Below are positions 52,538 through 56,864 of a DNA stretch of 64,000 nt, piece by piece (the first letter of the stretch is position 1; each line of letters opens with the position of its first letter). Made by a program: the position numbers and the translations under genes. Source of the DNA: an uncultured Chitinophaga sp. (GTDB taxonomy: Bacteria; Bacteroidota; Bacteroidia; Chitinophagales; Chitinophagaceae); contig CAYUCU010000003.1 in the NCBI GenBank assembly GCA_964443345.1, positions 5,413-69,412 of the forward strand, in the 5' to 3' direction. The notes under the pieces were generated by a model, which was not told the DNA's origin, made no database searches, and saw only the letters and a list, made by a program, of their open reading frames with translations.

Positions 52538-52652
52538 ATGACTTTTGTCACATTGGCTGCTAAGGGGTGTCAGTTTACACGCTTCTGTGACATTTCTCAC
52601 TTTGCTCCTTGACGTCTGTCATGAAACAGGCCATTCGCCATGAATAAGTTGC
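52538..52652. promoter_or_regulatory. Three Crp/Fnr-like TGA-N6-TCA boxes and a -7-like element in the divergent promoter region
   Basis: ATGACTTTTGTCAC at 52538-51, TGTGACATTTCTCAC at 52586-600, TTGACGTCTGTCAT at 52609-22, TAAGTTGC at 52645-52. Confidence 0.6.
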
Positions 52653-52686
52653 ATCACCTTTTTTTACTCTAAAACAAACCTCAACC

Positions 52687-52911
52687 ATGGGCAATACTAA
52701 AAAATCAACAGACCAGTCCCGCCGCGGTTTTTTCTCTCATTTCCTGTCAAAAAAAGAAACAAGCACCGAAAAAATAAAGATGCTTACTGCTGAAGGTAAA
52801 TTGGTGGAAGTGGATAAAGCCGTGTTTGATGCTGCCACTAAAAATCAAAAAGCAACCAATAAAGACATCTACACCTGGATGAACAATCCCTCTAAAGAAA
52901 CCAACGAATAA
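52687..52911 (+). CDS. Small protein resembling the Tat/N-terminal segment of the downstream Fe-S protein
   Basis: SRRGFF and TEKIKMLTAEGKLVEVD, versus SRRDFI and TEKIKLLSPDGEIVEID in 52937-53905. Confidence 0.75.
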   Translation: MGNTKKSTDQSRRGFFSHFLSKKETSTEKIKMLTAEGKLVEVDKAVFDAATKNQKATNKDIYTWMNNPSKETNE

Positions 52912-52936: not shown

Positions 52937-53905
52937 ATGAAACAGGAAGAAATAAATGACAAAAGCCGGCGGGATTTTATAAAAACCGCCGCCATTGCAA
53001 CGGTGGCAACTGCTGCCTGCGGAAGCCTCGTCTGTTCCTGCTCTTCTAAAAAAGCTGCAGTTACTGAAAAGATAAAACTCCTTTCCCCGGATGGAGAAAT
53101 TGTGGAGATCGACTCCGCTTATCTTAATCATCATGAAAATATGGCTGTGTTGTCCCAGCACGAACAAAGAATAGGAATAGCAGGAAAAAAATTTGTAATG
53201 GTAGTGGACCTGGCCCGCTGCAAAAATGCCCGGAAGTGCATTACCGCCTGCCAAAAACATCACTACCGCCCCGAGGAAACAGAATGGCTTACTATAAAAT
53301 TGATGAAGGATAGTGATAAAGGGGCCCCCTACTGGTTTCCAAAACAGTGCTTCCATTGCGACAACCCTCCTTGCGTAAAAGTGTGTCCCGTGGATGCTAC
53401 ATTCAAAAGACAGGATGGCCTGGTATTAATAGACAATGAACGTTGTATCGGTTGTAAGTTTTGCATGGCTGCCTGCCCTTACTCTACCCGTGTATTCAAC
53501 TGGAACGAACCCGAATTGCCGCTGGATATCAAAAACCTGCCCTACTCTGCCGAAACCGGTGTGCCTGCCCAGGTAGGTACCGTGGAGAAATGTGATTTCT
53601 GTCCCGACAGGGCAAGAGAAGGTTTGCTTCCTCCTTGTGTGGAGGCCTGCCCCAACGGAGTATTTTATTTTGGTGATGAAAATGAGGATACTGTTACCAA
53701 TGGTGACGAAACAGTCAGCTTCACTCAATTAATAAAAGACCGTGCCGGGTACCGGTATATGGAAGAACTGGGTACCAAACCAAGAGTGTATTACCTGCCA
53801 CCAAAAGACAGGCAGTTCCCGGTGGAAAGAGGCTATGAATCATTATCTGATGATCTGAAAGAACGGTACAAAGAGTATAAAGACGTATTGGGAGAAAAGA
53901 AATAG
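52937..53905 (+). CDS. Tat-exported 4Fe-4S dicluster protein (NrfC/DsrO/HmcB-like)
   Basis: SRRDFIK signal. Cys groups CKNARKCITAC, CFHCDNPPCVKVCP, CIGCKFCMAACP, CDFC...PPCVEACP. Confidence 0.9.
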   Translation: MKQEEINDKSRRDFIKTAAIATVATAACGSLVCSCSSKKAAVTEKIKLLSPDGEIVEIDSAYLNHHENMAVLSQHEQRIGIAGKKFVMVVDLARCKNARKCITACQKHHYRPEETEWLTIKLMKDSDKGAPYWFPKQCFHCDNPPCVKVCPVDATFKRQDGLVLIDNERCIGCKFCMAACPYSTRVFNWNEPELPLDIKNLPYSAETGVPAQVGTVEKCDFCPDRAREGLLPPCVEACPNGVFYFGDENEDTVTNGDETVSFTQLIKDRAGYRYMEELGTKPRVYYLPPKDRQFPVERGYESLSDDLKERYKEYKDVLGEKK

Positions 53906-53947: not shown

Positions 53948-55318
53948 ATGGAACTTAATACTTATCAACAGGAAGCCTTCAATTACCAGCGGAAGAATAT
54001 TGAAAAGTTTGGCAAAAAGAACTGGGCCTGGACCATCTTCTTCCTTCTCTGGATCATCGTTGGCGGATATGCCTTGTATTTACAAATTGCAAAAGGCCAT
54101 GGGGTAACGGGTATGCGGGATAATGTGGTATGGGGCCTGTTCATCGTCAATTTTATATTCTTTATCGGTATCAGCTATGCCGGGGCGATCATTGCCGGGT
54201 TATTACACCTTTTTAAAGTGCCCTGGGGCAAACCCATCATCCGTATTGCACAGCTGATGACGATCGTATCAGTTATCGTAGGACCGATATTTATTTTGCT
54301 TTGTGTAGGCCGGTTCGACCGCCTGCATCACCTGTTCATTTATCCACGGCTGCAATCTCCCATGACATGGGATGTACTGGCCATCCTAACTTATTTTGTC
54401 GGCAGCGTTCTATTCCTGTATATGGCATTGATAAAAGATTTCGCTGTGTACCGCGATGCCAAACTGAACATTCCAAAATGGAAACAACGGATGTATAAGT
54501 TCCTGGCAATAGGATACCGTGGCGCTGCCAGTCAGAAAAGACACCTGCTCATTTCACAGAACCTGCTGGCCATCATCATGATCCCGCTTTCTATTATTGT
54601 AAGTTCTATCCTCTCCTGGATATTTGGTATGACGCTGCGGCCGGGATGGCACAGCACTATCTTCGGCCCCTACTTCGTATTGGGTGCATTGTATTCTGGT
54701 TGTGGTGTGCTGATAGTTGCCATGTGGGTGTACAGAAAGATGTATAAACTTGAAACCTATTTTACCGACCGGCATTTCATTTATCTCGGTTATATCATAA
54801 TGGTGCTGGCCGCCGGTTATGGATACTTTACTTTCTCCGAATACTTCACCAGTTGGTTTGGCTCGGAAAAATGGGACAATGAAGTGATCAATAAATTATT
54901 CAATCCCGCAGCGTATGGCTGGTGGACATTGTTTGCTAATACAGCTGGCATCCTTTTACCCATACTTATTGTAGCGATACCAAAAACAAGAAAGCCTAAC
55001 CTTATTACACTGGCTGCCTTCCTGATGGTGATCGCCCTGTGGGTAAAACGGTATCTCATCATTGTTCCTACTCTGGAAACTCCGCTGCTTCCCATACAGG
55101 ACACCAGGGCCGCTTATGTTAAATACTCAGCTACCTGGCCAGAATGGGCGTTGACCTTTGCCGGTATTGCATCCTTCCTGTTGTTCTTTACCATTATGTC
55201 AAAGTTTGTAACGATTGTTCCTGTGTCAGGGCTGGAAGACACACACAAACCTTATGAACATGCCCACACTGAACATAACCACATAGAAACAAAAAAAGAA
55301 GAAGTTCATCCTGCATAA
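53948..55318 (+). CDS. NrfD/PsrC family integral membrane protein (ActC-like)
   Basis: WGLFIVNFIFFIGISYAG, VGRF, SPMTWD, PGWHSTIFGPYF, ~10 TM helices. Confidence 0.9.
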   Translation: MELNTYQQEAFNYQRKNIEKFGKKNWAWTIFFLLWIIVGGYALYLQIAKGHGVTGMRDNVVWGLFIVNFIFFIGISYAGAIIAGLLHLFKVPWGKPIIRIAQLMTIVSVIVGPIFILLCVGRFDRLHHLFIYPRLQSPMTWDVLAILTYFVGSVLFLYMALIKDFAVYRDAKLNIPKWKQRMYKFLAIGYRGAASQKRHLLISQNLLAIIMIPLSIIVSSILSWIFGMTLRPGWHSTIFGPYFVLGALYSGCGVLIVAMWVYRKMYKLETYFTDRHFIYLGYIIMVLAAGYGYFTFSEYFTSWFGSEKWDNEVINKLFNPAAYGWWTLFANTAGILLPILIVAIPKTRKPNLITLAAFLMVIALWVKRYLIIVPTLETPLLPIQDTRAAYVKYSATWPEWALTFAGIASFLLFFTIMSKFVTIVPVSGLEDTHKPYEHAHTEHNHIETKKEEVHPA

Positions 55319-55328
55319 AATTATTTTT

Positions 55329-56291
55329 ATGAAACAAATTCTTATATCAGCTTCACTAAAAAAATCCCGGCGGTTTATCCTCTTTGCAGGATTGATGGTA
55401 CTGTTGCTTACACCAGCTGGTCTTTTTGCACAAACAGACACCACAAAAACAACAGCTACTGAAGAACCTGCTGCCGCAGAAGAATCATCATTGATCTCTC
55501 CGACCATTGAATTCATCAGCGTTCAAAAAAGCAATAACACCATTGATCTGAAAGCTTCGCTGAGAGCCAAGATAAAAGGTTCGCTGACAAAGCTCCATAG
55601 CCTGAAGGTGAGATTCTACCTGATGAATGATACAATGGAACAGGAACTCGGAGCAGTAAATGCCGACATGAAAGGCGTAGCGCTGCTGAATGTAAAAGCG
55701 GATGCCATTACTCCTGATAAAGAAGGCAAACTGCATTTCAAAGCAGTCGTAGCCGGTAATAAATCAATGGAAGGAGCAAATGAAGAACTAACCATTAAAA
55801 GGGCCATACTTACCATTACCCCTGTAAAAGAAGATTCGTTGCTAAGTGTTTCCGTTAAACTGGTGGATATGGTAAGCGGAGTGGAAACCCCCGTAAAAGA
55901 AGCAGTTATCGGAATATTTGTTACCCGCTTATTCAATCCCCTGAAAGTGGTAGAAGCCACCACAGATGAAAATGGTGAGGCTTCTGTTGAATTTCCGGCC
56001 AACCTCCCGGGAGATGCAAAAGGCAATTTAACCCTGCTGGCCAGACTGGATGAAAGTGAGGTTTATGGCAACCTGGAAGCTTCTTCAGAGCAAAAATGGG
56101 GAGTTCCTGTTTCTAACTTAAATGAAGAACAGCCAAGGGCTTTATGGAGTTCACATCCCCCGATGTGGATGCTTATAACCTTTATTGTACTGATGGTGAC
56201 TGTATGGGGGCATTACATTGTTATCATATATGAACTGTTCCGTTTAAGAAAAGAGCAACCTCATGCACCTGTTGATGCAACTAATCCTTAA
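55329..56291 (+). CDS. Exported Ig-like protein with C-terminal TM anchor
   Basis: Signal peptide, beta-rich body (ATTDENGEASVEF), C-terminal TM PPMWMLITFIVLMVTVWGHY. Confidence 0.75.
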   Translation: MKQILISASLKKSRRFILFAGLMVLLLTPAGLFAQTDTTKTTATEEPAAAEESSLISPTIEFISVQKSNNTIDLKASLRAKIKGSLTKLHSLKVRFYLMNDTMEQELGAVNADMKGVALLNVKADAITPDKEGKLHFKAVVAGNKSMEGANEELTIKRAILTITPVKEDSLLSVSVKLVDMVSGVETPVKEAVIGIFVTRLFNPLKVVEATTDENGEASVEFPANLPGDAKGNLTLLARLDESEVYGNLEASSEQKWGVPVSNLNEEQPRALWSSHPPMWMLITFIVLMVTVWGHYIVIIYELFRLRKEQPHAPVDATNP

Positions 56292-56322
56292 TAAAACAAT
56301 ATCTTTAAATAGTAAAAAAACA

Positions 56323-56733
56323 ATGAAAATGAAAAAAAATGTAACTGTACTGATGTCATGCCTCTTTGCTGTTGGCTTCCTGGCTTTTGTACCAAAAAAC
56401 AGCGTACAGGATCCCTGGCCTGTTCCTGATGCATATAAAAACAAGGTAAATCCGCTTAAAGGCAATGTCGAATCTATCGCTACAGGCAAGACCCTTTACA
56501 ACCAGCATTGCAAGTCCTGTCATGGAACAAAAGGAAAAGGTGACGGACCTAAAGCATCCCAGTTAGATACTGAATGCGGCGATTTTACTAAAGCCTCTTT
56601 CCATGCACAGACAGATGGTTCCTTGTTTTACAAAACATACCAGGGAAGAAAAGATATGCCCTCTTATAAAACCAAGATACCAGATGCTAATGATATCTGG
56701 GCTGTGGTTAATTATATGAGAACATTGAAATAA
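56323..56733 (+). CDS. Monoheme class I cytochrome c
   Basis: Start MKMKKN (ATG 56323). NP..GKTLYNQHCKSCHG and distal MP. Confidence 0.9.
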   Translation: MKMKKNVTVLMSCLFAVGFLAFVPKNSVQDPWPVPDAYKNKVNPLKGNVESIATGKTLYNQHCKSCHGTKGKGDGPKASQLDTECGDFTKASFHAQTDGSLFYKTYQGRKDMPSYKTKIPDANDIWAVVNYMRTLK

Positions 56734-56757
56734 TTCCTGTTTCTTTTATGAGGCAAG

Positions 56758-56785
56758 CAAAGACCGTTTTATTAAGCGGTCTTTG
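56758..56785 (+). terminator. Probable terminator ending the Fe-S/NrfD operon
   Basis: CAAAGACCGTTT-TATT-AAGCGGTCTTTG then TCATTTTT. Confidence 0.65.
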
Positions 56786-56864
56786 TCATTTTTATACCCT
56801 TGTATAATTTTTCTTAGCAAATGCAAAAATCCTACAACTTTGCAATTCAACATTCGCATCCGCT

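Follow-up and report, generated by a model that had tools for sequence, protein, structure and literature searches.

An unannotated small-protein family with a twin-arginine motif, homologous to the N-terminus of its Fe-S partner in a Bacteroidota redox operon

The DNA analysed here, referred to as the window, is a stretch of 64,000 nucleotides from an uncultured Chitinophaga sp. Within it, a short gene running from ATG to TAA at 52687..52911 (+) encodes a protein of 74 aa. The next gene starts at 52937, 25 nt 3′ of this small ORF, and encodes a 322-aa Tat-targeted, probably lipidated 4Fe-4S subunit of the DsrO/NrfC/PsrB-like type (52937..53905, +; Fer4_11, 2e-25). Since the terminator search reported no candidate in the interval separating the two genes, the small ORF is regarded as opening an operon of five genes. 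The remaining members are an NrfD/DsrP-like quinone-interacting membrane subunit (53948..55318, +; PF03916, 1.6e-30), syntenic in related loci, a conserved 320-aa protein with a signal peptide and a C-terminal TM helix (55329..56291, +), and a mono-haem cytochrome c (56263..56733, +; PF00034, 1.2e-12) as the last gene, after which a strong intrinsic terminator with a 13-bp stem and a T-run closes the operon (56757..56786, +). Counted from its first ATG, the cytochrome c gene overlaps the end of the preceding gene by 29 nt (window 56263-56291), and its true start may be a later in-frame Met ahead of a signal-like stretch. The 320-aa protein matched nothing in Pfam or NCBIfam, and in the Atlas it falls only among Bacteroidota clusters named 'hypothetical protein'; weak leads in the same resource point to Ig-like, DUF4198 and CarboxypepD_reg folds. 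Upstream of the small gene and divergently oriented are genes for a DUF5777 barrel and for two haem proteins whose motifs are unusual. The 267-nt intergenic region that separates the two directions contains palindromes and a TAAGTTGC element (window 52538-52657), and the small-gene leader would be about 30 nt long if the start site placed in this region is right.

The neighbours of the small gene belong with the DsrO/NrfC/PsrB/ArrB four-cluster ferredoxins and their NrfD-type partners, but differ from these systems in that no catalytic subunit is present in the operon. DsrO (NF045797) is the best NCBIfam model for the Fe-S protein, its 187.6 bits falling below the equivalog cut-off of 200; neither DsrM nor DsrK nor DsrJ was found near the gene, and the DsrMKJOP context of a true DsrO is thus missing. 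The NrfD complexes catalogued in PMC8076601 do not include this type of operon. Our literature search found nothing on it, and no paper mentioning DUF5777.

The Fe-S protein has an N-terminus in which the motif SRRDFIK, a hydrophobic stretch, the cysteines C28/C33/C35 and a segment common to the small protein follow one another. Its homologues carry a complete Tat signal in 71 of 71 cases, with R11 invariant and R12 conserved in at least 90%, and in 67/71 this signal ends in a lipobox-like Cys, so that the protein is probably a Tat-exported lipoprotein. As a lipoprotein, it would hold its hairpin EKIKLLSPDGEIVEID (residues 44-59; 53066..53113, +; delimited by BLASTP, hhalign and AF2 strands 45-49 and 55-59) just below the lipid anchor. 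The hairpin forms part of an N-terminal module that is paralogous to the small protein and spans residues 1-83 (52937-53185), conserved in the 71 homologues. The solved chains of ArrB (6cz7_B), PsrB (2vpw_B) and ActB align only from about position 87 of the Fe-S profile, and hence the N-terminal module is special to this Bacteroidota Fe-S family; unlike the solved members of the DsrO/NrfC/PsrB/ArrB group, the Fe-S protein of the window combines a Tat-lipoprotein signal of its own with this 80-aa module. The end of the Fe-S leader is a triple-Cys string, A-C-G-S-x-x-C-S-C-S-S (residues 28-36, window 53018-53044), which recurs in the operon clade whose small proteins have canonical or core-less signals (L021-L038, L045, L069 and others). 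The first of these Cys is in keeping with a lipobox; the remaining two may be extra ligands or serve in a disulfide or in acylation; in the clade with RK-type small proteins a single lipobox Cys is present (A-V-A-G-C).

The small protein itself contains three recognisable elements. The first is the twin-arginine motif S-R-R-G-F-F (residues 11-16; 52717..52734, +), in which S11-R12-R13-G-F-F agrees with the n-region Tat consensus S/T-R-R-x-F-L-K; in alignment A1, R12 and F15 are invariant and R13 is conserved in at least 90%, and the RR codons vary synonymously (CGC, CGG, CGT, AGA, AGG) while the residues stay constant. An earlier note, made from the letters of this DNA, had pointed out that the ORF keeps the motif of the Fe-S protein (SRRGFF against SRRDFI) and possesses neither a hydrophobic h-region nor a Cys-rich lipobox region nor Fe-S cysteines, and this description is accurate in each respect: only 8 uncharged residues separate the motif from K22-K23-E24, fewer than the roughly 12 or more after the motif by which an h-region was recognised here, and no Cys occurs among the 74 residues. 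The second element is the beta-hairpin EKIKMLTAEGKLVEVDK (residues 28-44; 52768..52818, +), common to the Fe-S protein according to BLASTP, hhalign and AF2, with K31, L33, T34, G37 and L39 invariant in A1. The third is a C-terminal helix and tail, K-A-T-N-K-D-I-Y-x-W-M-N-N-P-S-K (residues 55-70; 52849..52896, +), where N58, W64 and S69 are invariant in the same alignment. AF2 predicts strands at 29-33 and 39-43 (pLDDT about 75) and helices at 44-52 and 58-65, the models of the small protein and of the Fe-S protein both being single-chain predictions of middling confidence (mean pLDDT 65 and 64, respectively). Foldseek returned nothing below E 0.78 for the small-protein model against the PDB; its top rows (MEF2, Argonaute, exosome) were dismissed as noise, and AbrB/Phd-type hairpin dimerisers at E 2-4 were not counted. 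A scan against Pfam and NCBIfam, including the Tat-signal models TIGR01409 and PF10518, gave no match at E ≤ 0.01, and no curated family in these collections covers the mature part of the protein.

The resemblance between both N-termini is a matter of homology. With BLASTP, 14 of 28 residues are identical between aa 21-48 of the small protein and aa 37-64 of the Fe-S protein (E 2e-7), bearing out the common segment TEKIK.L...G..VE.D listed in the earlier note, and the comparison of family against family with hhalign reaches 98.8% probability (E 1e-16) over 75 columns. This alignment runs from the RR motif through the hairpin into the S-N-x-E stretch and ends just before the first ferredoxin strand; when the two families are compared, the small protein is matched over its entire length by residues 2-83 of the Fe-S protein, and the distance from the hairpin Asp to the conserved S-N-x-E is the same in the two proteins. 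The strongest part of the common segment sits behind the h-region and Cys of the Fe-S protein, that is, in its mature N-terminus. The earlier description of the ORF as a mimic of the Tat leader was therefore only partly right, since the best-conserved portion is mature sequence.

As regards the origin of the gene, in a tree of the hairpin-helix module (41 columns) a single branch (SH-aLRT 98) separates all small proteins from all Fe-S N-terminal modules; given the short alignment, only this split between small and Fe-S sequences is trusted. Such a split is consistent with a single ancient duplication affecting the 5′ part of the Fe-S gene, and at odds with repeated duplications or with gene conversion. 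The small gene would thus have been born once, by a duplication that took along the Tat signal, the beta-hairpin and the short helix. A search for natural proteins in which the small and Fe-S parts are fused found none, which is weak evidence. The differences between the hairpins of both partners were followed in about 75 pairs and track two operon clades, so that they amount to one event, and column covariation was dropped for this reason.

It could be argued that an ORF located directly 5′ of a gene whose own 5′ end resembles it is a decaying remnant of that duplication, or a regulatory uORF whose peptide sequence is irrelevant, the more so as the small gene evolves faster than the Fe-S gene (53-78% against 80-87% identity). 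Nevertheless, among 15 same-genus orthologues the median dN/dS is 0.17 for the small gene and 0.045 for the Fe-S gene, with dS near saturation; length differences are all in frame and confined to one linker, and invariant residues are spread along the full length. In addition, the C-terminus of the small protein bears a conserved motif for which the Fe-S protein has no equivalent. While a word-indexed search retrieved 130 clusters at 90% identity, an exhaustive profile search yielded 618 clusters at 50% identity (E ≤ 1e-3), 154 of them at E ≤ 1e-10, distributed across several orders but within Bacteroidota only; their source names are 'hypothetical protein' or generic mislabels, and the lengths range from 46 to 131 aa in the best 150 of the 618 clusters. 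Together with the single, ancient origin seen in the module tree, these observations make a remnant or uORF highly improbable and indicate that the 74-aa ORF is a genuine protein under purifying selection. In particular, the dN/dS value, the 618 clusters and the single old origin rule out a uORF and the strain-specific partial duplication with dN/dS near 1 against which the earlier note had cautioned.

The conservation survey proposed in that note also reveals how closely the gene keeps to its partner. A scan of one genome per species detected 199 loci, and the 80 that were retrieved are all from Bacteroidota (Saprospiraceae, Chitinophagaceae, Sphingobacteriaceae, Cyclobacteriaceae and Ohtaekwangia). 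The order small gene, Fe-S gene, NrfD gene, 320-aa gene is found in 67/80 of these loci, with a median gap of 23 nt between the first two; every related locus has a cytochrome c gene just 5′ or 3′ of the core, and the genes for DUF5777 and the haem proteins lie nearby. A family HMM recovers the small ORF in 80/80 loci and, in every locus whose contig extends as far as the Fe-S gene, the N-terminal module of the Fe-S protein as well. Of 61 genomes from the genus, 33 have the Fe-S gene, 35 the small gene and 26 neither, the two genomes with the small gene only being cases in which no Fe-S match was obtained at the threshold used; wherever the Fe-S gene was found, the small gene adjoins it. In an even sample of the phylum, the module is present in 13/401 genomes. 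On the other hand, Fe-S proteins with the hairpin occur without a small gene in the operons L016, L017 and L019 and as second copies in L021, L075, L082 and L096, which implies that the small subunit is not obligatory for this Fe-S family. The second copies are Fe-S and NrfD pairs bearing the hairpin module, with no small gene before them (L021:10803-12243, L075:10687-12198, L082:8285-10695 and L096:11296-12228), and further such pairs were noted at G005:C111:45306, G008:C129 and G011:C1:189920. Genome G022 of the genus, which has 6% contamination, contains two copies of a core-less small gene with its Fe-S gene (G022:C4:26833-28009 and G022:C18:330069-331241).

We define this unnamed family by a length of 65-90 aa, an RR or RK motif, a variable linker, the hairpin and a helix of the type K-A-S-N-x-E-I-x-x-W, all of which can be recognised in the small protein of the window (alignments A1 and A2); in genomic terms, its members directly precede a module-bearing Fe-S gene that is followed by the NrfD and 320-aa genes, as in the window, in 67/80 loci and in every genome of the genus in which the operon was found. 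The mature part is constant throughout (E-[KT]-V-K-M-L-T-x-D-G-K-L-V-E-V-D-K, a helix and K-A-S-N-x-E-I-x-x-W), and it is the N-terminus that comes in three variants. In the first, RR is followed by an uncharged stretch of 15-23 residues, constituting a canonical cleavable Tat signal with an A-x-A site in 20/28 cases. TIGR01409 matches 7/25 relatives with such a signal, P0149 scoring 17.5 bits against a cut-off of 16.7. In the second, S-R-K-K-F-L-L-W-G-A-A... precedes a run of Lys, and the operons form a clade with the cytochrome c gene upstream, to which locus L068 of the culturable Mucilaginibacter frigoritolerans ATCC BAA-1854 belongs; this N-terminus looks like an uncleaved membrane anchor. 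The third variant, to which the window protein belongs as a 'T3' member, reads S-R-R-x-F-[FL]-S-x-L followed by polar residues and lacks the h-region, the uncharged run being of only 7-11 residues (16 loci). Averaged over 12 residues, hydropathy lies between -0.2 and 0.6 in this h-less variant versus 1.5-2.4 in the other two.

Two of the variants can be compared with described proteins. The canonical-signal relatives recall TIGR02811 ('formate dehydrogenase region TAT target'), whose members likewise have about 65-80 aa, contain little beyond a Tat signal and a short tail, and lie beside a respiratory oxidoreductase; 6/25 of these relatives match the model weakly (best E 5e-4). However, the match concerns only the signal region (P0149: 16.2 bits, model positions 1-30 of 66), the mature hairpin-helix part is unrelated and the operon differs. 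Membership was rejected, as P0149 remains far below the 48.45-bit cut-off and the window protein gives no match. The RK-type relatives (SRKKFLLWGAA... plus Lys run), in turn, are reminiscent of the uncleaved Tat signal-anchors of Rieske/PetC-type Fe-S proteins, and PF10399 and PF25471 match weakly in 2/25 relatives. This comparison applies to the RK sister subtype and not to the window protein, which has no hydrophobic stretch, and the domain that the RK-type anchor would hold carries no cofactor, unlike that of Rieske proteins.

At 75 loci, RR is combined with an h-region in 28 and RK or KK in 30, while the h-less proteins have RR in 16 and RK or KK in 1. Among 150 representatives the corresponding figures are 60, 18, 58 and 4, with 10 that could not be classed and a handful in the h-less column that are misfiled interrupted h-regions. 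Thus, about 40% of the representatives are of the h-less type, and h-less forms keep RR more strictly than those with a hydrophobic core: RR is retained in 58/62 of the former, whereas RK or KK replaces it in 18/78 of the latter. R-K is usual (as S-R-K-K-F-L) in the anchor-like clade (L031, L040-L043, L047, L053-L067 and others), and RR was seen to be relaxed only in combination with high hydrophobicity. In a tree of the Fe-S core from which the N-terminus was left out, the window type forms a clade with a support of 99 nested in another with a support of 98, the rest of which have canonical signals; one more h-less locus, L070, is placed apart. Close relatives with the N-P-S-K tail, such as P0145, keep full signals, and an h-less group with SRRxFLxK... 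(P0168, P0171 and P0190) is found among the most distant representatives. Given the nesting among canonical signals and the existence of relatives like P0145, the h-less state is derived, and it is stable and common.

What does a protein of this kind do? About 60% of the members carry a full Tat signal or a membrane anchor on the same hairpin-helix domain, which argues that in relatives the domain works outside the cytoplasm. Since relatives export this very domain, we infer that the ancestral role was that of a periplasmic accessory subunit and not of a cytoplasmic decoy. The redox module would consist of the Fe-S lipoprotein, the NrfD-type quinone subunit, the 320-aa protein and the cytochrome c, adjoining an outer-membrane DUF5777 barrel and haem proteins, and the hairpin-helix domain would act on its periplasmic side. 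There, the hairpin probably pairs with the lipid-anchored N-terminal hairpin of the Fe-S protein, or else NrfD or the 320-aa protein may provide a docking site next to it. Among the suggestions made in the earlier note, the one most in accord with the evidence is a partner that dimerises via the common beta-hairpin.

In the clade of the window, the hydrophobic core of the signal was deleted while SRRxF was kept under selection. The most economical way to accommodate this is that the small protein would associate with the Fe-S precursor, once folded, while still in the cytoplasm and cross the membrane with it via Tat as a hitchhiker. The RR of the small protein might then offer the pair a second contact with TatC, which is encoded in the genome. 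This is the weakest step, because plain hitchhiking would let RR decay and the second contact has to be assumed in addition; the near invariance of RR in h-less forms (58/62), where a redundant signal should erode, speaks against co-export for the same reason. We give the whole chain, from periplasmic accessory subunit to hitchhiking and a second TatC contact, an even chance of being correct. Precedents for the transport step are the Tat hitchhiker pairs HybO/HybC, DmsA/DmsB and PsrA/PsrB, in which, as proposed here, a folded partner that lacks a functional signal travels with the subunit that bears one. Unlike in these pairs, the proposed passenger is a paralogue of the N-terminus of its carrier and still displays RR, and the carrier would be the Fe-S subunit itself, its closest solved relatives, ArrB and PsrB, being without the N-terminal module. 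According to PMC10924467, there are Tat substrates that are exported as heterodimers in which only one of the partners carries the signal.

The persistence of RR can be read in other ways. The h-less protein may stay in the cytoplasm and there escort or proofread the Fe-S subunit on its way to export by Tat, beta-pairing with the partner's N-terminal hairpin until the clusters are inserted, with its own RR docking on TatC or gating it. The missing h-region, with 7-11 uncharged residues after RR at 16 loci and no match to Tat-signal HMMs, is in keeping with such a factor, as is the fact that the h-less state is widespread and stable and does not look like recent decay. The strictness of RR in h-less forms, compared with its relaxation in those with an h-region, implies that the motif matters most where it is not part of an ordinary signal. 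Moreover, neither TorD/DmsD (PF02613) nor NapD (PF03927) was found in this 97.85%-complete genome. These REMPs perform the cytoplasmic proofreading of a Tat-exported cofactor protein that the earlier note had proposed for the small ORF; a REMP-type chaperone by homology was discarded, given that the ORF has no Pfam match and the two families were not found. Nonetheless, about 60% of the family, close relatives with the NPSK tail among them, have a cleavable Tat signal or a membrane anchor in front of this same domain, and it is less economical to suppose that the domain moved to another compartment without itself changing. The known Tat chaperones bind signal peptides but are not similar to them, and no natural RR decoy is known to us as a precedent. 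The proposal of a cytoplasmic decoy, chaperone or proofreading factor is hence weakened for the family at large and keeps some force for the h-less subtype, where RR retention and the missing TorD/DmsD and NapD favour it; we consider it rather unlikely even so.

In a related possibility, the h-less members would be an 'RR-only' Tat-targeting element acting in trans, which displays the twin arginine in the absence of any core able to insert into the membrane and so provides a second TatC contact or TatBC gating for the partner. To our knowledge, no split or bipartite element of this kind has been described, and we regard this function as doubtful; if true, it would amount to a split or bipartite Tat signal, or to a built-in proofreading device.

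Finally, RR and the approximately 8 uncharged, partly aromatic residues behind it could be a self-sufficient minimal Tat signal, with the protein being exported alone and probably uncleaved. The S-R-R-x-F-[LF] consensus is intact and selected, the residues that follow it are always hydrophobic or small (FFSxLL, FLSLLV), and small hydrophilic cargo can go through Tat. Yet Tat h-regions usually comprise roughly 12 or more residues, and here both the uncharged run (7-11) and the hydropathy (-0.2 to 0.6) fall short of those of the signal-bearing relatives (1.5-2.4 for hydropathy), with Tat-signal HMMs giving no score. Independent export of the window protein is therefore improbable, and co-export with the Fe-S subunit is the reading that we prefer.

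Small Tat-associated accessory subunits are known in kind. What is new here is a subunit that is a paralogue of the N-terminus of its own partner and that exists in a widespread RR-only form. The findings add a real, widespread and unannotated family of small proteins to a Bacteroidota respiratory module. A subunit that would have been born from the duplicated front end of its partner predicts a pseudo-symmetric pair of hairpins at the membrane surface. For Tat signals, the family represents a natural experiment in which one and the same 45-residue cargo is combined with a canonical signal, with an RK anchor or with RR alone. As RR is strictest where the core is missing, the function of a lone RR becomes testable, whether this function lies in TatC binding, in co-export or in proofreading.
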